From Psilocybe cubensis (taxonomy: Eukaryota): a stretch of 64,000 nt of DNA. The position numbers and the translations under genes are program-made. The notes under the pieces were generated by a model that saw nothing but the letters and a program-made list of their open reading frames with translations, was not told the DNA's origin and made no database searches. The DNA lies in the NCBI GenBank assembly GCA_017499595.2, contig CM039001.1:806001-870000 (forward strand), in the 5' to 3' direction. The first letter of the stretch is position 1. Every line of letters begins with the position of its first letter. Positions 44,167 to 61,540 of the stretch are shown here, in pieces.

Positions 44167-45826
44167 TTAGAACGTGATTTTTTGACCTTGGTTGGGAACG
44201 ATAGCTGCAGATTCACGTTTTGCAAGCGCCAGTGCCGCTCCCGGTTTAGGACGGGATTTGGGTCCTTTGTGCCTGACCCCTTCAGAACCTGCCAGTTTTT
44301 CTTTATGGCTAACCCATTGTTGTTTTGGAGTAGAATCTGTTTGTGCATTTTCTGTTGTAGAAGACTTGGGAGCACCATTCCAGTCGGATGCGGGTTCAGC
44401 TGAATCGTCAGCATCCCGCTGGGGCCGTTCTTTTCGAGACGAGCGTTTGCCTGGGCTGAGAGCGTTATCCACCTGTTTATTTTTGGGGGCGCCTCGACGA
44501 ACAGCATCTGCACCTGCATATTCGACCTTTAAATTTCTTCCATTCAAGTGGTGATTTTTTGGGTTGATGAGCGCTGAGGTAGCGTCGTCAACAGTCATGA
44601 AATCGACAAACGCAAAGCTACAGCAAAATTCGATCACTCGTAGATGGCATGAGCAATATATCCTTACCCTTTACAAGCGCCAGAGTCTTCGAAAGTGCCC
44701 ATCCTTACTTTGCGTATCCACGCATCCTTAGGTTTTTTATCCTCTCCTTTTGCATCGGGGGTATCTTTAGATGCCTTTTTATGACCTGGCCGGTGCGCTT
44801 CAAAGAGTTCACGAATGGAATCTTCGGTGGTATCGAACCCCAAGTTTCCAAGGAACAAAGTAGGGGCGGGGGGCTGCTTTTGTGCTCTAAGAATCTTTTG
44901 CGCAGTTTTGGAGTGTGTTTTGTGTGCGACTACAGGGTCTGAAATGACGTTCTCTGCCCCTATGGCGGCTGGTCGACCTTTAAAGTCATCTCCTGTATAC
45001 AACAATTAGTTACAACAAGGTCTGATACGCCATATCATGGACAGACCATCTTTGATCAGAAGTTTCCGACCAAGGAGAGGGTTTTCTGAGAGGGCAATAG
45101 CGGTAATCTTTGCATCAGGTGTTGCAAAGTCTACATAGGCAAATCTGTAGAATAGAAGTCAGATACAAAAATTCAATGATCGACTGAAATAACCCACCCG
45201 CGGTTTTCAGGTTTCTGTCCAGGACCGTTTGCGACAGCCTTTGTGGGCATATTAATTCGAGTTATCTCCCCAACTCCATCAAAAAATGCCCTAAGGTTCT
45301 CCTGGGTAGTTTTGAACGATAGATTACCAACCCAAACAGAATTTTGCCGTTTCGTAGGAGCAGAGTTATCGACCACTTTGGCACTACCATCCTTAAGTTT
45401 GCGTTTCTTCAACGCCTTCCCTTCCTCTGCCAATTTCGCGGCAAGTTTTTCCTCCTTCTTTTTTCTTCTGCGTTCTGCATGAGAGAGTACAGGTTCTTCT
45501 GAATCCTGAATATCTTCAGCGTCTGACTTGACTGCATTTTTCTCTGAGTCCGGACCGCCTAGACCTTGAGAACTATCTTCTTCGTCGTCTGATGGCGCGC
45601 TGTTTTTGTTGTGTGCGATTTTCTTCACTTCTGAGGAGGGTGCGCTGTCGTTTTCTTCCACTATTTTGTCTTCGACTGGGGCAATGGCCTTTCTTTTGCG
45701 TTTCGTTTTCTGGACTTTGGAAGCAGGGATATCCTCGGCGGGGACAGTCTCTTTCCGTTTCCTCTTTTTCTCCTTGATTTCTGGAGCAGGACTGCTACTT
45801 TTGGAAGATGATGAGGGAGAGCTCAT
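44167..45826 (-). CDS. Nucleolar double-RRM protein (Nop13/Rnp24-like)
   Basis: Lys/Glu-rich N-terminus; VWVGNLSFKTT, FAYVDFAT, LFLGNLGFDTT, IRKVRMGTFEDSGACKGFAFVDF, RPKPGAALALAKR. Confidence 0.85.
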
Positions 45827-46137
45827 TGAGGATATTCGACAACGATGGGCTTGTGCCTGCTTGTGCTCATTGTTAAAAAACCAAAATCTATTTCCCCGAC
45901 CACATGGGGTCACATGATGCGTAGAATGGGTGTTTTAATCGCGCGAACAGGCGACATCACACAGATACTCAAGGAACCAGTAACTATTTCCAATTATTTC
46001 TCAACTATAACCTAGTGCCCGTTCTTCGACTATATGGAGTCGATACACATCTGAATCTCTCCGGAACACCTGTAATGTAACTTTTAATCTTAATGTAAAG
46101 TAAAACATATCCCTTCTCAGCAATCTTTCACAGGGCC

Positions 46138-49266: not shown

Positions 49267-51959
49267 CTAACGTCTACGTGCTACTGCCCGCTTGTGGTCA
49301 TCCGTCAGGACCTTCGCAGGTCCTCTCCTGGCCATTGCGTACAAGAACACAAAAACTACGATAGCAAATTGCAACCATAGCCAGACCTGGAGTAAGATGC
49401 CCGAGTTGCGCTTTTCTTCCTCTTTCTTCTCCGGTGAGGTGCCTGCATGAAGGAGCACGGACCTCTCCCTAATATGTCCAGGGCGACGGCGACGCAGTGG
49501 AGTGATGGCAGTAAATGGGGCAACATCATCATCGTCGGCGTCGGTGTCGTTGTTTCCAGTTGAAGTTACGGAAAAAGAATTAAACCCATCTATCATTGAG
49601 TCTACGGCATGCGACAATCGGCTTGGGATCCCAATTGTGAGATCCAAAGGAGACGGTGGCCTCGACGTAGACAAAGTCTTCTGATCATCCTCTTCCTCAT
49701 CCTCATTTTCGATGTCACCTTCATTCGCGTCGTCTTCGTACTGGCGTTGGATTACAAACCGCCGATCGACCCAACGGTTAGTACGCGAACGCAATGTGTC
49801 TGACATCATTTGCATACGCGGCGACCGCGTGTCGTTGAGCGAGTAAACTCCTCGTACACTGGCATTGTTACCAACAGAATCAAATCTATTCGGCGTAGGA
49901 GGCTCCACTGACAGCCTCAAGGAGTTCGCGGATGCTAGCAAAGGTGGTGTTCGTGGGGTTGTCCCATCCCTGATACTAAGACCACTATCGTCATAAAAAG
50001 GCCTTAACCCACTTGCGTTGTCATTCGCTAATTTGTGTGAGAGAGAAAGTGTTGACGTCCGTGAAAGAGGAGAGGGAGTGGGTGGAGCAGATATCTGACT
50101 CAAGTCGTACAAGCTCAATGTACGCATATGGAGGAGGTGGTTATTGGGGGGACCATGCAGCTCCCAGGCCGTGTTACCGAGTTCTTTGTCCAGCTCGTGC
50201 TGTAGGGTATGGCGCGAATTTACCGGAGACAACTCAGGAGGTGCATTCGCCGCGGGTGAAAAGAAGTGAAGAGGAGAAAGTACACCAGGTGCCAGAGGGG
50301 ATGCAAGTCCTGCTGCTGCTGATGCAGTTGTAATGGACGGCAATGTCGAATGACCCTGCTCATCCATCCATGATGCTGATGACTGGTCTTGATTGTGCAT
50401 AGGATTATCCTTATGGAGCGAAGAAGAGCTATCTCCATGGGAAAAGTCCTCAGATATAGGAACTTCGGGTTCGTCGAACAAACCCATAACGCTTGCTCGT
50501 TTCTTGCCCGTCGACACGCCTAACTGAGGGCGGACAATACAAGTCCCTTCCAAGTATTCTTCGCTCTCTATGGTTCTTCTCAGACTTGAGAATTTCAAGG
50601 GTTTCTCTTCCTCATCGTCTGCATTCGATTCCTCCTGTTCGTGACACTCGTCGATGTCATGGTCGAGCTCCAGTTCTGTGGAGTTTGGATCTGCAAGTGT
50701 TTCGTAGACCTTTGTAATATGCGCAGTGTCACGTTGAACGGCCGACAACTGTTCGGCGGTATCTGACTGTTGCTGCAAAATCCGTGCATTTGTCTCCTCC
50801 AATTCCTGCACCTTGATCAGTAATTGTGAAATTAACGCGTGTTCCGGTTGGGCGAGAGAAGGTGGGATGGCAGTCGAGTTGTCATCAGATCCAGAAGAAG
50901 CTTTCAGTTGTCGATTAGGATTAGGACTGGAAGAAGTTGGAAAGAATGAGAAGCCATCCGACGGACCACCGTGCCTGGAACCCTCTGGAGCAAAATTTCT
51001 TATAGGCTCTTCGCCATCAAAGGAGTCATCGCGCCCAAGGTTCCGCATCGCCCTGAACTTTGCCTCTCTCTCCTTTTTCCGTCTCCAGGCTTCGCCCACA
51101 ACTGCCCCTTGGACCTTCTCCTCTAGCTCTTCGCTCTTTGCTTGGGTTTTCTCCAGAGCTTCTCGGAGGAACGTAATCTCCTTCTCCAACCTCTTCAACT
51201 CCCGTCGTCCAGCCAGGTCAGCAGAGACAGATTCGGCTTCCAGCTTCTCAAGTTTGTCCAACAATTTCGCGTTTTGGTCTTCTAGCAGAGATATGTCAGC
51301 GGATGCAATAGACACTCGGCGCGTGTGCCTGTAGAAAGATCGTTTCGGCGACTTGATGAGAGCTGCTTCCGAGGTAGACGAAACCATGCTAGTGTTGCTA
51401 TTGCACAGTGTCATCTTGGACAGACTTTCAGGTGATGAGTTTGACCGCGTAGGTGAAACAGGTATACGAGCGAGCATAGCCTGATGCTTCGACTTTAATT
51501 CCACATTACTCTGATAAAGACCTTTACAAACAGCACTGGTAATCCCAAGTTCTGCAAACGGAAAATATCAACATGGGTTGACAAACGCAGTCAGGCCCAC
51601 TAAATCAAATTATCATTACAATTCCGGCATCACGCACCATTCTCCCTCTGTTTGATAATTGCGTCTGCTTTGACCAAGAGCTCCTGAAGCTCCTCGCGCG
51701 ACTTCTCGTTCATCCAGTCCTCACTTTCAGGTGGGGGTGAGGGCAACTGCTGATCATCAGGGTCCGCATCCCACCCGACCAGCTGAAACGTGCTCGTCAT
51801 AGGTGACCCTAAAATGTCCCTTCTCTTCCTCTCATGGCCATTGAGCAAGAAAGGAGTTCCGTACGCTGGCGGAGGTGTAGCGGAGGCCTTGAGCAATGCA
51901 GACGCTCTTCTGGCTTTGGCTGGCGGAAGTGGACGAGGTGTTTCAGAGTTAGCTAGCAT
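49267..51959 (-). CDS. Uncharacterised coiled-coil protein with C-terminal transmembrane anchor
   Basis: Two exons (intron 51552-51637); several heptad regions; hydrophobic ILLQVWLWLQFAIVVFVFLYAMA followed by a short basic tail. Confidence 0.85.
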
Positions 51960-52655
51960 CTTGTGTGGTTACAATAGATTAAGTCAAACAGGTAAAGTTA
52001 ATTGGGTTTTCTGTCAGTGAGAGGGATATTTTGAGTGGAGTTTCTGGTGGGAGGTTGAATTCGGTAGACGTGGGCCTAAATGGTGTCGTGGAGGCCGGAC
52101 CAATTATAAACGCGTCCAGCACAATCTCCAAGGAAGTTCCAGGATCAAATAAATTGCAGAAATGAACGCGTCAAGCTGTCTGCCAGAACAGCATCTAACG
52201 GACAGTACAGAAATGTCCGAGGGAGGGAAGGGGAGAGTCAAGGAACGTGTTAAACAGCAAACCTGGCCCGGTGAACTCTCCCCACATCTCGCTTAGATGA
52301 TGACACGTGAACGTTTTGGCACTTGAACCATGACGGCCAAGAATGTCGCACAACACAATACAAATTCAATCCAGATTTCACTCTAAGAGAGAAAGCTTGT
52401 AGTTAATACAAGTCCATTACAGGGTATGTAGTTGTGAAGGAGGTAGCTTAGCATGTCATGTAAAATAAAAGATGGTGGTCGATAATATTGCGGGATGGAA
52501 TTCAGAAATGCGATTGCGGGAAACAGGGGCAACAAGAGCGACGACAAAAACAAAAATTGTGAAAAATAATACATATCTGGCATTGAATAATTTCGAAAAA
52601 AAGATGGCGGAATGCCTTGACTACTAATAACCATGAACATCCAACGACGGGCAAC

Positions 52656-55600
52656 CTATTTTGATTGAGCTGGTGCCCCAAATGCTGCACCACCGAATAC
52701 ATTGGACGGGGCGGTTGTATTGCTCAAATTGCCAAACGCGGATTGACCGGGTGTGGTCGTTGTTCCAAACAACGGGGGCGGTTGCGATGGGGTTGTTGTC
52801 GCCGTCGTTGGAGCAGTCGTCTTTCCACCAAAGTTAAATGAAAAACCTCCACTAGCAGGTGTTGAAGCAGGTGTCGTTGATGTAGCGCCACTAGCAGGTG
52901 TAGCAGGGGTCTGAGAAGTTGAACCAAACGAGAAGGTGGGCTTGCTCGCAGTACTGTCCGAAGCGGGTGCGGTCGAAGATGCGCCACCAAAATTAAATTT
53001 GGGTGTACTCGAGGAATCAGCAGGCTTCGTTGTCGACTCTGAGGATGCACCCCCACCAAAGACGCTGGAAGTCTGAGCAGCAGTGGCGCCAAACGGCGAT
53101 GCCCCAGTTCCTGCTTTGTTCCCAAACGCTGAGGTGGTGGGGATGTTTCCAAATGCAGACGTAGTGGTGGCGGATGCATTGCCAAAAGGCGACGGTTTGG
53201 CACCACCGAAGGCTGACGAAGCATTAGTGTTACTTCCAAAAGCCGACGAAGTGTTACCACCACCAAACGGCGACGAAGTATTGGACGTATTTCCAAATGG
53301 CGACGTAGTACTCGATGCAGTAGTTCCAAATGTCGATGGCGCACCAAATCCAGACTTGGGAGGCTCCTTATCCTTATCCTTGTTTGCAGTTGAACCCTGT
53401 GTTGCAAATGGAGATGTTCCAAAGTTGAACTTCAAACCACCTGTAGGCGCAGTTGATGTGGAAGCAGGAGGATTAGTTGCAGGCGTAGTACTAGCCTCCG
53501 CAGCGTTCGTTGCAGAAGCAGGTGTCGTAGGAGTCTTGAAGCTAAAGAGAGATGCGCCACCTGAAGCAGGCGCAGGTGCCGATGCAGTCCCAGAAAAAGT
53601 ATTGCCTGTAGCAGAGCCTGGCTTCTGTGGGTCTGAACCCAAAGCACCACTCAACGAAGACCCTGTGCCATTAACAGCACCTGTTGAAGGAGCAGAAGCA
53701 GTGGTGGCTGTCTTGTTCGGCACAGCAAAGTTGAACTTCAACCCGGAGCCTCCACTTGATGGCGCAGTCGAAGTGGTTGCACCATTTGTAGGAGTTGACG
53801 AGGAATTTGAAGAAGCAGGCTGTCCGAAGGGATTGGATGAAGCCGGCTGACCGAAAGGGTTTGACGCGGTAGTACTAGTAGTGGTTCCAGACGTAGTGGG
53901 TTTGGCAAATGAAAAGATGTTGGATGCAGGCTGAGTCGAAGGTTTCGGTGCATCAGAAACTTGAGGTCCTAATCTCGACATTAACGATGGCCCCCCACCA
54001 CTGGTAGCAGTGTTTGCAGTCTCTCCATCTTTCTTCGGCGCACTGAAATTGAACGTAGAAGGGGTTGTGGAAGGAGGGACAGAAGAAGCTGGGGTAGTAC
54101 TAGATGCACTAGGATTTGCGAAAGAAAATCCACCAGCAGGGGGAGCTGGCTGACTAGAGTTGGCAGCTGGAGTGCCAGAAGATGCCGACGACGGTTGCGA
54201 AGGGTTCGCCAAGCTGAATCCAGTATTAGAGGGTGTAGAAGAAGGTTGGCTACTGGAAGCCGCAGAAGCCTTAGCAGGAGGCATACTAAACAAAGAAGCA
54301 GCAGGAGCTGTTCCGGAAGATGTGGAATTGGAAGTCGAGGTAGAATTAGGAACAGAGAAGAAGGACGAGGCACCTGCAGAAGGGGTAGGAATCGGTCCAG
54401 CGCCTGAAGATGTTGGAGCAGGTGTTGCAGTGGTGGGATTTGGAGGGGGAGGCATAGACGCGGCCTCTTTTTTCTTCCTCTCCTGTTCCGCTTTCTCTTT
54501 CTCCGCCTTCTCCTTTTCAATACGTTCTTTCTCCTGGCGCTCTTTAGCGAGTTGTTCGGTGCGTGCCCGTTCAGCAGCCTGCCGTTTGGCCTCTTCTTCT
54601 TGCTCTTTCTTCCTAGTAGCCTCACGAATCTTCATCATAGCACGTGCCTCGAGCTCTTGCTTCTCCCATTTCGAAAGGACTTTGCGTGGGCTACTATTAG
54701 TGCTATCTGACAAACCAGAGGACCCGACAGCGGCTGGTGACCCAATAGCTCGGGCGTTCGATGCAATTCGTTTGGCGGCGGGTATTTGCGACTCGCTAAA
54801 GGGATTGAGGACTAAAGACGAAGGACCCATTGAGAGACGAGAAGTCCTTGGTCTTGGGATTTCGGGCGGAGGGGTCTGTGGGACAGGTGAACCAGTAGGA
54901 GTAGAAGTTGAGGACCATAACAGATTTTTTCCAGAAAGGGAACCTTCCCTGTGGACAGAAGCAGTGTCTGACTGTTTGAAAATTAGTAAGACTTGGTTGC
55001 ATACGTCTGCTAAAAGCATACCGAGATATCCAAAGTCAACTTGTGGATATTTTTCGTTTCAGGATCGTCCTGCCATGCAAGGTTATGTTGAGCTTTGGCC
55101 TCTTGATATTCTTCTTCCGTGAGCCACGTTTCAATGCAAACTTGGAGATTAACATCGCGGTCTGGATGTAAAGAGTCTTTAGGCTGCAAGGATAATCAAT
55201 CATTAAACAATTGCCTCGTGTTTAAATTAAACATTAGAAATACGCACCATGACAAATTTCTGCCTCGCTTTCTTCACGAGGGCCTGACGAAGACGTTGTC
55301 CGTTTGGACCGATTTTGTATTTGACACCGTTGCTTTCCCATTCATCGCCAATCTCCCTAATCTTACTCCTTGAAAACGAGGAATCCTCCATAGATATATC
55401 GCTCTCTGCAGCTCGGTCACGACGGTGCGATGAATGCTTGCCTTTCTTGTGCGCTGACTTTTCCAGTGAATCGCCTTCACTGAAACCTTCACTAAGATCG
55501 TCTTCAGTGACCCTGTCTCGCTTCTTGCCACGCAGATGACTGGCTTCAGATTTACGTTTCGACACAGTGCGTCTCTTCCTACGTCTTCGGACAATAGCAT

Positions 55601-56772
55601 CGCTATCCTCTGGCTCCTCGGCACTGTCGTCGTCATCGCCACCAAAAGTAGAGCCTGCCTCAGTACGGTCGCGCTTCTTGCCACGATGGGTCGATGGAGA
55701 CGGTAATTCTGTCACTTGGTCATCATCTTCCTCATCGACATCCATGTCGGATTTGGCCAGCGAAATCTTCCGAGATCGTTTCCCGCGGAATTTCTTAGCG
55801 TTGTTATTATATTCCATGTCCTCGTCGTGCATAACACGTTTTGAGCCACGTTTTGGAGCGAGGTCTTCAAACTCCGCGTCCTCGTCGCCGTCCACCATCT
55901 CTTCACCTTCAACCCTGAATTTTTTGGTCTCATGTTCTTCCAAGTGGTCCCCGTCGAAGCCGCGCTTTCTCTCTTCGTTGTCTGACTCATCTACATTCAC
56001 ATATCCACCACGGCGAACGAGACCGTTCTTCGACTCGTCATTGTCTTGAACGACGTTTCCACTGAAATGATATTATGTAAGCATTAAAGAAATAAGAAGA
56101 TTGGTGCTGGTGCCACATACGCATGAGTACCCTGAGCATGATTTGTGTGACCAAAAGAACTTGGACCGTATGTAGCAGCACTGTATCTCCCAGGAATCGG
56201 TGTGACCACGGCAGGCGAGCCAACTTGCGGTGTGCCTAAAATACAAATAGAAGAACAAGAAAGAAAAGTTGTTGAGAATCGTCTCTGTTGGTAAATTATG
56301 ATGCAAAAATGATGAAACTTACTTGTACGGTTCCGCAGTCCCTGCGGTACTGACTCTGGCTGGAGAAGGATGGGCGCTTGGGGACGAAAGGATGGTCTCG
56401 GTCTTGTCTTTTTGCTGTTCTCGTCTTCGCGAGATTTTATCATAGCGTCATTATACGCCACATTGAAGGGGCGATGATCACTGTCGGGGATACCATGTCT
56501 TCGTCGCGTCGCTCTAATTGAAAGGAACCGCGTAAAAGTAAGTAATGAGACAAAGTGGGTTTGAAGCATAGATGGTATGCTCACAATCTAAGCGACCTTT
56601 CCCGCCATATAAGAACACGTCTCCAGAGACGCCTTCCTACCACGAATACGGCGACAATAAACATTGACGCAAATACCACCTGCGTCATAGAATACGAAGA
56701 TGCAGCTCCGGGTCTTCCATTAGACCTAGGCATGGTTTTTTGGCCAAGTATGTCGGACGTGTCGCGGTCCAT
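52656..56772 (-). CDS. FG-repeat nucleoporin-like protein with N-terminal transmembrane segment
   Basis: Six exons splice in frame (~1270 aa): TM VVFASMFIVAVFVVG, basic clusters, short coiled coil, and a long Ser/Thr/Ala-rich tail with FSF, FNFG, SAFG and SPFG motifs. Confidence 0.8.
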
Positions 56773-57884
56773 GGCGAGATGGCGAAAAGAAAAGGGCAGC
56801 AAGCGCCGGGTGGTCTGTACAGACTACAATGATGGTGGAAGTCGTAAGCAGGAGACGTCGACACCGACAGATGGCACTGCAATCAATGGCTTCTTTGTTT
56901 GTGCTTGTTATTTTTCGGATGCAATCCAAATAAAAGGAAATTTTTGCCTTGTACTCGTTTGCAGCGACTGTCATCTCTCCGTCGATGGGGTCCTGTTTTC
57001 GCAATACATCCTATCATTTTTCTTATGTCTTTGTCCATTCTCCTTCATCCCACATACATATGCCTAGGAACACGGCTCCAGTGCCTTCGTTACCTCAACT
57101 TGTGTGTGGAAGATCGACGCCCCTTCTGGTCCACGCTTGAATGTCCAGCTACCTGGTAGCTCGAGTTATATGGCCATTCGAGTACTAAACCGAAGCGATA
57201 TCCCTTTTTTCGTTACATGTTTTTTCTCTTTTCTGTATAGTACCCGATGTATGATTTACATGATTTGCACGTCCAATGACATTTCCTTGATTCGATATAG
57301 CCAATGAGTTGACCCATTTTACTGTCTTTACTGAGGTCTGCACCTGCGCAACTGAGTGCGCTTCGCGTTTGCAACGGACCACTCCCATTTCCCGGGGTTG
57401 GTGCTTGCTAAAATTTTGTCGTGGCGCGCTTAGAAATCGAGACGATCCTATGCGGTCTCCACGAAGTGGTTTTAATTTTGAACACCTGTGTATATACTTG
57501 TAGTCTGTTCTGAAGAAACTGACGAATATTTCCTCCACTCGGGGTCATATTTAGCCTGCAATCTACCCGAAGCTGCATGAATAGAGACAAAATTGGTAGT
57601 CAAAACCTCAGAGTACGACACGCCCAGAATGGTCGAGATAAACGGTGACTCTCAAGGCACCTTCCGTGTTTCAAGGACCCGCATTACGCTGTAAGGTACT
57701 CGGGGCTCGTATTTCGCTACTCGGGCTGCCGCGGAAAATAGGCAAGTGAAGAGGTAAAGTACGTGGGAAATTTTGCTTGACTTTTGCAATAAGTAGCGGC
57801 TGGGCATTGTCCCACTTTCGACCGTCCCACCAACTCGTCCCTCCGAGCCAACTTCGACTTCCTCCTTCCCTCTCGTACTTCACA

Positions 57885-58561
57885 ATGTCCGCCGACAAGA
57901 TCGTTACCCTTGAGGAGCTCCGTGCCCACAAGTCCAGAGACAAGCTGTACATCCTCATCCACGGCAAAGGTAGCGCGTCAACCAATCATGTCGTCTCTTT
58001 TTCACATCCTGACTGTATTTCGTTCAAGTCTACAACGTAACAAAGTTCTTGGACGAGGTATGTAGAAATCGCAAGTAAATGCTTTGTAGGGCTACAATGA
58101 ATCGTCAAACTCAACTAGCACCCTGGAGGAGATGAGGTTTTGCTTGCCGAGGGTGGTACGTGGCAACCGTTCGGTACCCCAAATTTCCGGCACAGTCTAA
58201 CCCCCACACAGGTATGGACGCGACAGAGGCGTTCGAGGACGTCGGTCACTCCGACGAGGCGCGCGCCCTCCTCCCCGGAATGCTCGTTGGTAGCTTCGAA
58301 GAAGGAGCTGTTAGTCATCGTCGTTTCCCAGTCCCTTCCCCTTCTAACCATCCCTACCCCTTTTTCTAGTTGAAGTCTGGTGCTGCCTCAGCCCATGGCG
58401 CAAAAGTGGCCACTGCCGTCGAGCAAGGATCAAAGTTCGTACTTCATCTTCTATACTGTGGATATTTCCTCACCTCCCTGCTTTACAGTCTCATGTACTT
58501 TGTTCCTCTCGGTCTGCTAGGTGCCTACTTCGCATGGCAGTACTACAGCGGTTCTGCCTAG
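57885..58561 (+). CDS. CYB5: Cytochrome b5
   Basis: LIHGK|VYNVTKFLDE|HPGGDEVLLAEG|GMDATEAFEDVGHSDEAR; C-terminal membrane anchor. Confidence 0.95.
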
Positions 58562-60106: not shown

Positions 60107-61540
60107 CTAAACGCTATGTATAAGTAATATTCTCGTAACAAATATCAGAAGCAGAAGGATTTTACTCACCAAACCTCTATGCCCAGCAAGCGCAATCCCT
60201 CTTTGGCCGCTTCGTTTCGGGCGTACTTCTTCGTGTTCCCGCGCCCACATCCGTAGAATTGTCCGTCGACATGAACTTTGACGTTCCACACCGGAGTGGC
60301 CTTTGTGCCCTTGACATTTTCATTGTCACTGTTACTCGCATCTCCAGCCGAGGTATCAGTGCCGTCAGAGTAAATCCACTCCACCTGTCGGCCCGTCTTC
60401 TGCAGGTACTGATTGAACAGAGCGAGGTGACCGATCGTTGTCAGGTTCATGAGGTCGCTGGGTTCAGAGTGCGGGGTATTTCCTGCTCCTATACCAGTGC
60501 TCCAGTTCCCGATGCCTGATGGGTGGCCGGGATGGTGACGGGGCGCGAGTCTGTCAGACCTTCCGCTGTTAAGTTGGGAGGAAGGCGATATGGGTGGGAG
60601 CCCGTGCTGTTCGCGAATGACTCGGTATGCCTCCGCAGCATATGGGCGGAATAGCGGTTTAATCCAGGCGCTCACGACTTCCAGTCCTTGATCGAGGTAT
60701 AGGCCGCCCACGAAGGCCTAAACATAGCGGGTTGGTCAGGTTTTACTGTTCTGCAGACTGATGGCATATGGCACAGATCTTGAGAACCCACCTCAAATAC
60801 ATTGGCTGTGATACATTTAATTAAACGGGTTATATATATAGGAAAGGAGCGCACCTCGGATGTTTGTCGAAGCACGAAGTGTGACGGCCTGTGCTGGGTG
60901 CAAGCGGAGGTTATCGTGCAATTTATACCTGAATGATCTGATGACATTCCGTGTCAGTTCTCTGTCAAGGCTTAAGGGATGATGGAAAGACGGCAGACAT
61001 TTGAGCGAGGGTATAGTTTGCGACAATCATAGACCTGATTTTCTGCAACACAGCACATCAATAGAAAGAAGATGAAATTTGCAGGATGATTGATCCTACT
61101 GTGGCTGGTCCAACCCTTAAACCTGGGTACATCTCTATCAAAAGAGTCGTGATGGCCATTTGCAACACTGAGTCCCCCAAATGTTCAAACCTTGAGAGCG
61201 TAGTTAGCATATATCCCAGTCGCAATGGAAGCTTCACTGACTTTTCGTTATCCATGCTTAAATCGTTATGCGCATCTTCGAACACATGAGCTGCTCTTGC
61301 AAAAAAGCTGCGGTGTGTATAAATCTGTTGTTGGATTGCCAGAGAGTGGATACGAGGAAGCGCGGGGAAGAGATGGTCGCCTACACCGAAATCGGGCCTG
61401 AACATGGAAAAAATGTTAGCAGACAGGCTTCATCTAGTCGTTCCATCGTTCCATCTGCAGAAAAATGGTGGAAGCCGGATATCACCCGACCTCTAACACT
61501 GATCTGAGGCAACCTCTACGCACTTCAACGATATAGTCAT
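60107..61540 (-). CDS. Ribonuclease III domain + dsRNA-binding domain protein
   Basis: YTHRS..DNEK|FEHLGDSVL, ANVFE|AFVGGLYLDQG, and C-terminal dsRBD (YGCGRGNTKKYARNEAAKEGL). Start (61540 or 61687) and last exon uncertain. Confidence 0.85.

Follow-up and report, generated by a model that had tools for sequence, protein, structure and literature searches.

Does a mushroom possess a nuclear pore protein that is built like vertebrate POM121, with a membrane helix near the N-terminus, clusters resembling nuclear localization signals (NLSs), and phenylalanine-glycine (FG) repeats at the other end? This question is raised by a gene in a 64,000-nucleotide (nt) stretch of the Psilocybe cubensis genome (GenBank assembly GCA_017499595.2, contig CM039001.1, positions 806,001 to 870,000 of the forward strand), which we call the window and to which all coordinates refer. 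The gene lies on the minus strand, as do all of its features given below, with its ATG at 56772 and its stop codon at 52656-52658. We found that a membrane-helix exon and an FG-repeat exon are spliced together and read in one frame. The product is best explained, with moderate confidence, as an Agaricomycete-wide, membrane-integral FG nucleoporin that is POM121-like in function; homology to POM121 is not established.

A membrane exon and an FG exon in one spliced message

A preliminary description of this locus had joined four open reading frame (ORF) pieces between positions 52656 and 56772 into one protein of about 1,270 amino acids (aa). The end coordinates proved exact, and the pieces do splice into a single protein. 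However, the gene has six exons rather than four pieces, and the product has 1,261 aa. We derived the exon borders from a minus-strand reading of 57200..54900 and a donor-site scan, with consistent phase. Exon 1 (56585..56772; aa 1-63) carries the N-terminal tail with the sequence SDILG, the predicted membrane helix, and the start of a basic juxtamembrane helix. Exon 2 (56323..56513) and exon 3 (56121..56235) are followed by exon 4 (55248..56061), which encodes an acidic/basic, predicted disordered linker and the first half of a folded domain; by exon 5 (55022..55183), which encodes the second part of that 75-aa domain; and by exon 6 (52656..54971, stop codon included). All five introns are GT..AG, and the joined coding sequence of 3,783 nt translates into 1,261 aa and has one stop, at its end. 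The ATG at 56772 stands in the context GCCATGG, and its frame is directly preceded by an in-frame stop.

Two intron-free contigs carry this model, X1 (4,079 nt) and X2 (4,129 nt), one contig per run and both from one study. They extend from 56845 to 52442 and 52391, covering a 73-nt leader that contains no ATG (56773..56845), all six exons, and a 3' untranslated part (52391..52655). The positions that they skip are 54971/55022, 55183/55248, 56061/56121, 56234/56322 (cut +1), and 56513/56585, with plus-strand borders CT..AC, and both contain 0.70 of the sampled words, which is near the exon share of the queried stretch. The DNA runs X3 and X4 align colinearly to the genome, introns included. 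None of the five runs is recorded as RNA, and the RNA type of X1 and X2 is a guess. Because X1 and X2 join all six exons, the membrane-helix exon and the FG exon lie in one spliced message and not on separate transcripts, the outcome that would have refuted the preliminary description.

Over about 4 kilobases, X1 and X2 differ from the genome only by six extra bases, ATTATA on the plus strand, at 55147/55148 in exon 5. We read this insertion as in frame and inside a loop of the conserved 75-aa domain. X3 and X4 are without it, yet they differ at six other positions, and the orthologues have the shorter form without the insertion. It could be a dikaryon allele or an assembly error. A separate short contig from the same two runs (276 and 267 nt) lies upstream of the gene at 56968-57245, unjoined to the long contigs; it could represent an alternative leader, an upstream transcript, or DNA carry-over.

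The deposited annotation starts later. The exon-4 product is 100% identical to P. cubensis JR316_0004386, a 1,175-aa protein annotated as hypothetical that corresponds to residues 87-1261 of our model. Because this record begins at residue 87, it contains neither exon 1 nor the anchor. The sequence M..SDILG, a hydrophobic stretch, and the motif RRRHGIPD.D.RPFNVAY together open independent models from Galerina, Coprinopsis (CC1G_08166), Lentinula, and Abortiporus, and at least eight further deposited models begin exactly at the exon-2 motif MRR[RK][HY]GIPD. It appears that deposited models have systematically missed exon 1, a small exon that encodes the membrane anchor.

Architecture of the predicted protein

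The first 26 residues form a short tail in which the D, I, L, and G of SDILG are conserved at 90% or more in 70 orthologues, the set to which the conservation values below refer. A predicted transmembrane helix follows at aa 27-46 (YSMTQVVFASMFIVAVFVVG; 56635..56694), with a mean hydrophobicity of 0.9-0.98 and a hydrophobic moment of 0.05-0.08. On scales entered by hand, its Hessa sum is 1.84 (19 residues, position independent) and its Kyte-Doolittle mean is 2.02. This is the one hydrophobic segment in the 1,261 aa; no other 19-mer has a sum below about +10. The adjoining residues, aa 47-64 (RRLWRRVLIWRERSLRLA), have a moment of 0.40 and a net charge of +6 and lead into the juxtamembrane motif ATRRRHGIPDSDHRPFNVAY at the start of exon 2 (aa 64-83; 56453..56513), whose R, R, G, I, D, and D are invariant. 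An AlphaFold model of the N-terminal half of the Desarmillaria orthologue, built on the 70-sequence alignment, has one helix at residues 25-69 and a second at 80-95. Its block-mean predicted local distance difference test (pLDDT) values are 92-98 over roughly residues 31-90, and residues 110-415 are mostly below 50.

Among the orthologues the position of the anchor is conserved but its sequence is not. Both a hydrophobic 19-mer and the motif R[RK][HYN]G[IV]P[DE] are found in 113 of 154 family proteins of at least 1,000 aa, at a spacing of 31-44 residues (median, 38). The remaining long proteins have the anchor only (14), the motif only (14), or neither (13), and many of the last two kinds start exactly at exon 2 or beyond it, which is what truncated models would show. 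From these sequences and the orthologue model, we infer that aa 27-46 form an inserted membrane helix and not an amphipathic helix and, by the positive-inside rule applied to the Arg cluster after the helix, that the C-terminal bulk lies outside the lumen.

The linker beyond the juxtamembrane region is rich in charge, with 61 Lys plus Arg and 64 Asp plus Glu among 271 residues and eight K[KR].[KR] matches. A motif scan located NLS-like basic clusters at about aa 240-375 (55431..55838), namely, KRGSKR, RGKRSRK, RGKKRDR twice, RRRRKRR, and KKGK. In the alignment, the clusters RGSKR, KRARKVS, RGKKRDR..AGSTFGGDD, RKRR..KRKS, RG.KRDR, and RKKRGK are all at least 90% conserved. These conserved clusters sit within a region of pLDDT below 50, and about 330 residues are predicted to be disordered in all.

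A small domain follows the linker, its first part in exon 4 (aa 402-436; 55248..55352) and its second part in exon 5 (aa 437-475, PKDSLHPDR...LAWQD; 55067..55183). When the orthologue counterpart of aa 402-475 (IGDEWESNGVKYKIGPNGQRLR ... HPDR ... ETWLTEEEY ... LAWQD) was modelled alone, pLDDT was 90-96 and the model had four strands and two helices; both parts are conserved. A fold search with this domain reached a best Z of 2.5 among 48,161 chains, and Foldseek gave nothing at E≤0.001 (best, 0.67). With the model of the N-terminal half, the fold search returned single long helices only (Z≤5.6). Downstream of the domain are the conserved motifs GK.LLW, NPF, KRIAS, and DSTN and then, at about aa 590-661 (54459..54674; alignment columns about 750-850), a predicted helix, SKWEKQELEA.AMMKIRE, that runs on into a Glu/Lys/Arg-rich helix. 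The length of this continuation ranges from near nothing in Abortiporus and Lentinula to about 75 residues in Galerina.

The last 572 residues (aa 690-1261; 52659..54374) make up the FG-repeat domain, with 42 Phe, 21 FG, and 10 FxF. The enrichment in FG is beyond chance: 2,000 shuffles gave a mean of 4.7 (standard deviation, 1.9) and a maximum of 14. The domain consists largely of S (20.6%), T (16.1%), A (14.7%), P (11.9%), G (11.4%), and F (7.3%). Ser plus Thr account for 36.7%, Asp plus Glu for 1.9%, and Leu, Val, Ile, and Met together for 3.7%, which leaves Phe as nearly the sole hydrophobic residue. Many FG, low charge, and Phe as the near-only hydrophobic residue are the traits of the FG-nucleoporin class, and aa 690-1261 have all of them. 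Several Phe columns are at least 90% conserved. A search of the family profile against all PDB sequences returned eight rows at E≤10, in which the two plausible matches, the significant one to the FG region of Nsp1 (2.7e-6) and the next to that of Nup1 (0.023), fell within the FG part of the query and are compositional. Outside the FG region there was just noise (E, 0.37-4.6).

The preliminary description had listed a hydrophobic helix followed by RRLWRR, the clusters KRGSKR, RGKRSRK, RGKKRDR (twice), and RRRRKRR, a folded-looking segment PKDSLHPDR..IETWLTEEEY, a coiled coil, and a tail of FSF/FNFG/SAFG/SPFG repeats. All of these are present. The hydrophobicity, the moment, and the orthologue model of the first fit a membrane helix, the folded-looking segment falls in the domain predicted at pLDDT 90-96, the coiled coil corresponds to the Glu/Lys/Arg-rich helix, and the tail has its 21 FG against 4.7±1.9 in shuffles. 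The POM121-type order of membrane helix, NLS-like linker, and C-terminal FG repeats likewise holds and is conserved among orthologues.

Taxonomic spread and relation to known nucleoporins

How widely is this protein distributed? A first search found 71 proteins among 95 candidates, and a search with a 14-sequence profile found 308 among 7,999 scored candidates. The best 120 of the 308 all carry the names of mushroom-forming genera, except for six that are unnamed. The Lyophyllum shimeji member is labelled "putative nuclear pore complex protein," and the other named members among the 120 listed are hypothetical or uncharacterised. An exhaustive search of 1.84 billion representatives gave 513 matches at E≤0.001, 345 at ≤1e-10, and 187 at ≤1e-30 with a profile (1,183 positions) that included the FG region, and the weak tail of these may be low-complexity matches. 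Many of the best 150 of the 513 are single-exon metagenome fragments. Nine of the ten weakest long matches are named: Auricularia subglabra, Rhizoctonia solani (two clusters), Sistotremastrum, Sanghuangporus, Pisolithus, Ramaria, Epithele, and Blastosporella. By taxonomy, Rhizoctonia belongs to the Cantharellales, Auricularia to the Auriculariales, and Sistotremastrum to the Sistotremastrales, all of them Agaricomycetes. In the deep-branching members, the hydrophobic segment, the juxtamembrane motif, and WEKQ are retained, along with 13-24 FG. In the ESM Atlas, the N-terminal half matched unnamed Basidiomycota clusters only (scores, 0.81-0.83), and the 75-aa domain gave no usable match.

By its sequences, this is an unnamed family kept across Agaricomycetes, from Agaricales to Cantharellales. 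We saw no members outside Agaricomycetes among the matches listed, which did not cover Ustilago and Cryptococcus, and the restriction may be a limit of the searches. A search with the Rhizoctonia domain region found 16 proteins only (13 from Ceratobasidiaceae and 3 from Boletales); because its recall was low, it is uninformative on outgroups. Our literature search found no description of this fungal family, no mention of CC1G_08166, and no Basidiomycota transmembrane nucleoporin. Queries that combined POM121 with basidiomycete, Ustilago, or Cryptococcus gave only vertebrate-specific statements or unrelated work.

To which known nucleoporins, then, might the family be related? A Pfam-A hmmscan at E≤1 with five pieces of the window matched no family, POM121 (PF15229, which we take to be the Pfam POM121 model) included, and gave only two unrelated sub-threshold rows; with 14 orthologues, it gave nothing besides a single Nucleoporin_FG row, for one of the 14 (E, 0.016). 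For both scans, HMMER filters lose many matches above about 0.1. For POM121, Nup153/Nup1/Nup60, Pom34, Pom152, and Ndc1, there were no Pfam rows at E≤1. Because Pfam, PDB-profile, and fold searches gave no link beyond FG, the family is not assignable to any of these. The protein resembles POM121 in having one membrane helix, placed early in the chain, in the predicted exposure of most of its length on the pore/nucleoplasmic side, in its NLS-type basic clusters in a long unstructured region, and in the FG repeats of its C-terminal part. It differs in that no sequence similarity to POM121 is detectable by Pfam or PDB profile, and it has parts of its own: the presumably lumenal SDILG tail, the RRRHGIPD.D.RPFNVAY motif, the 75-aa domain, and the Glu/Lys/Arg-rich helix. 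To our knowledge, none of these four is a feature of POM121. For its part, POM121 has functional NLSs that bind importin alpha, binds the beta-propellers of Nup155 and Nup160, and has a soluble isoform. The preliminary description had proposed either an analogue or a remote homologue of POM121. Analogue stays a reasonable word; remote homologue is not supported, as Pfam gave no POM121 match at E≤1.

Two other kinds of protein share parts of this design. Nup1 and Nup60 of yeast and Nup153 of vertebrates are nuclear-basket FG nucleoporins with N-terminal membrane-binding amphipathic helices. Like them, the mushroom protein has an N-terminus predicted to contact the membrane and repeats of the FxF/FxFG type, and by analogy it might act on the nuclear side with importins. 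However, a peripheral amphipathic N-terminal helix of the basket type was not found: the amphipathic basic helix follows the anchor and is less hydrophobic than it. Because the anchor is uniformly hydrophobic (moment, 0.05-0.08), it is probably integral rather than peripheral, unlike the membrane contacts of Nup1, Nup60, and Nup153. The second comparison is with Heh1 and Heh2, the yeast counterparts of LEM2/MAN1, whose sorting to the inner nuclear membrane uses an NLS, a long unfolded linker, and a membrane helix. As in these proteins, strong basic clusters lie at least about 190 disordered residues away from the membrane helix. In contrast to them, the mushroom protein has no LEM or MAN1 domains by Pfam, its helix is at the N-terminus, which reverses the orientation, and it has an FG domain.

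Published work bears on the comparison in several ways. According to passages of a 2025 review (PMC13242641), POM121 crosses the membrane once, exposes a large unstructured region to the pore, binds NUP155, and acts early in both interphase and post-mitotic pore assembly. In excerpts of Neumann et al. 2010 (PMC2951903), POM121 is found in vertebrates only, six basidiomycetes, including Coprinopsis, Laccaria, and Phanerochaete, have Ndc1 and Pom152 and no Pom34, and open mitosis is the rule in basidiomycetes, documented in Ustilago and Cryptococcus. Excerpts of Chopra et al. 2019 (PMC6371224) place POM121 in chordates only and Nup60 and Pom34 in ascomycetes only. Pom34, Pom152, and Ndc1 are fungal pore membrane proteins, as the candidate would be, and Pom34 has large unstructured pore-facing parts according to the review passages (PMC13242641). 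However, these three have two, one (with lumenal immunoglobulin repeats), and six membrane helices, respectively, none is an FG protein, and none gave a Pfam match here. A parallel is known from Tetrahymena, where a protein was named Pom121 by the same architecture and located at macronuclear pores (Iwamoto et al. 2017, PMC5450191, in excerpts). TtPom121 and the mushroom protein share an N-terminal membrane helix and C-terminal FG repeats, and the same excerpts report NLS activity near the N-terminus of TtPom121 (PMC5450191). TtPom121 was shown at pores by green fluorescent protein fusion and immunoelectron microscopy (PMC5450191, in excerpts), whereas a pore location of the mushroom family is predicted. 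By analogy, TtPom121 is a precedent for inferring a pore role from architecture.

Proposed role, alternatives, and genomic setting

If the protein is a membrane-integral FG nucleoporin, its parts could work together as follows. The hydrophobic helix at aa 27-46 would insert as a signal anchor, with the short conserved SDILG tail facing the lumen of the endoplasmic reticulum (ER) or perinuclear space; because about ten Arg follow the helix, the remainder would face the cytoplasm or nucleoplasm. The basic amphipathic helix and the RRRHGIPD.D.RPFNVAY motif would lie on the membrane surface. The unfolded linker of about 330 aa, with its five or more conserved basic clusters, would recruit importin alpha/beta, which would bring the protein to the inner nuclear membrane and the pore, as in POM121 and Heh1/Heh2. 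There the 75-aa domain and the motifs GK.LLW, NPF, KRIAS, and SKWEKQ.LEA may dock on pore scaffold proteins, and the C-terminal FG domain of some 570 aa may bind transport receptors. Functionally, POM121 would have a counterpart in fungi: an FG nucleoporin tethered to the membrane and able to seed or anchor pores.

Several observations weigh against this interpretation. Outside the compositionally biased FG region, Pfam, PDB, and fold searches gave no sequence or fold link to known nucleoporins, and the window's own FG exon was unmatched by Pfam Nucleoporin_FG. The putative NLSs were assigned by pattern matching. For some orthologues the position-independent hydrophobicity sums, +1.8 to +3 kcal/mol, are borderline for insertion. 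The RNA nature of X1 and X2 is guessed, though their missing introns support it, and there may be a second isoform without the membrane exon, which would be compatible with the contigs. For every family member, location at the pore is read from sequences and models.

Could the family instead represent the FG nucleoporins of the nuclear basket (Nup1, Nup60, Nup124, and Nup153) in Agaricomycetes, with the amphipathic helix replaced by a true membrane helix? We consider this possible but unlikely. On this view, the protein would sit solely on the nuclear face, where its task would be to end import or to anchor the basket and not to seed pores. The FxF/FxFG-type repeats with Ser/Thr-rich spacers, the weak profile match to the Nup1 FG region (E, 0.023), the strong NLS-like clusters, and the basic amphipathic helix adjoining the anchor would all suit such a protein, and the basket slot may be free because Nup60 is reported in ascomycetes only (PMC6371224, in excerpts). 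However, the anchoring segment is uniformly hydrophobic, not amphipathic, and there was no Pfam match at E≤1, the Nup153 and Nup1/Nup124 families included. It is rather improbable that the protein resides in the inner nuclear membrane or ER outside the pore and that its FG tail works at another site, such as the dolipore, where it could be a sieve or plug in the septal pore cap that derives from the ER. The family was seen in Agaricomycetes only, among the matches listed, an ER-derived septal pore cap is stated for Agaricomycotina in passages of PMC10023807, and no homology to pore proteins is detectable beyond the FG region. Our literature search found no work that links septal pore caps with FG proteins, only co-mentions in passing. 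The five or more conserved NLS-type clusters and the acidic/basic linker point instead to the nucleus, and the Agaricomycete restriction may reflect limited searches. We regard as highly speculative the idea that the FG tail, held in ER-derived membrane, acts away from nuclear pores, or not solely at them, and that its Phe-Gly meshwork at the septal pore cap forms a nuclear-pore-like selective sieve between neighboring mushroom cells; the restriction to Agaricomycetes would fit such a sieve, and the conserved NLS-like clusters speak against it.

Two further explanations concern ancestry and the anchor itself. That the protein is a true, very diverged homologue of vertebrate POM121, and that a membrane-anchored FG nucleoporin dates to the opisthokont ancestor, seems very doubtful. 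Both proteins have the same order and topology, from a short N-tail through a membrane helix at about residue 30 and the NLS clusters to FG repeats in the C-terminal half, and disordered proteins are generally known to lose sequence signal quickly. However, neither the five window pieces nor the 14 orthologues had a Pfam POM121 match at E≤1, no POM121 chain was among the PDB profile matches, no members were seen outside Agaricomycetes among the matches listed, and published screens, as excerpted, confine POM121 to vertebrates or chordates (PMC2951903, PMC6371224). We give hardly any credence to a soluble protein whose hydrophobic segment is a cleaved signal, a buried helix, or absent from the main product. 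The deposited P. cubensis model does begin at residue 87, 27 of the 154 long models have no hydrophobic N-terminus, and several summed hydrophobicities are above 0. Yet both intron-free contigs contain the exon 1-exon 2 junction, and the many short models that begin exactly at MRRRHGIPD resemble the result of a missed first exon. With its start at residue 27, its length of 20 residues, and the Arg cluster behind it, the segment is unlike a cleaved signal peptide; its position is conserved, though its sequence is not.

The gene has a conserved neighbor. Downstream on the minus strand, at 49270-51968, is a gene for a coiled-coil protein whose C-terminus carries a hydrophobic tail anchor (…VWLWLQFAIVVFVFLYAMA…) and which has no Pfam family. 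In nine of nine family models longer than 1,700 aa, from Mycena, Roridomyces, and several other genera, mostly polypores, the C-terminal part is homologous to this neighbor (E, 1e-97 to 5e-21). Because all nine long models hold both proteins, the two genes lie next to each other on the same strand in two or more orders, and gene callers often merge them into one model. Divergent and upstream of the gene, an ORF piece on the plus strand at 57750-58040 (MSADKIVTLEELRAHKSRDKLYILIHGK) resembles what we take to be the start of a cytochrome b5-type domain. Two minus-strand ORF pieces farther away, 60169-60717 and 45176-45934, have a double-stranded RNA-binding motif (E, 8.9e-9) and an RNA recognition motif (E, 4.2e-6), respectively, and look like ordinary neighboring genes.

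What would a membrane-tethered FG nucleoporin mean for these fungi? One outcome is practical: a systematic annotation error is flagged, as the P. cubensis record and many other deposited models lack the anchor exon. Basidiomycete pores are reported to have Ndc1 and Pom152 but not Pom34, which makes membrane tethering, and rebuilding after open mitosis, a question. A membrane-anchored FG protein that is conserved in every mushroom order sampled is a concrete candidate for pore tethering, and given the Pom34 gap, the link to open or semi-open mitosis raised in the preliminary description is plausible. If the protein is at pores, it would be the third independent case of the membrane-helix, NLS, and FG design, after vertebrates and ciliates. 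Such a third instance, if true, would argue that pore seeding from the membrane has repeatedly been solved by this design.

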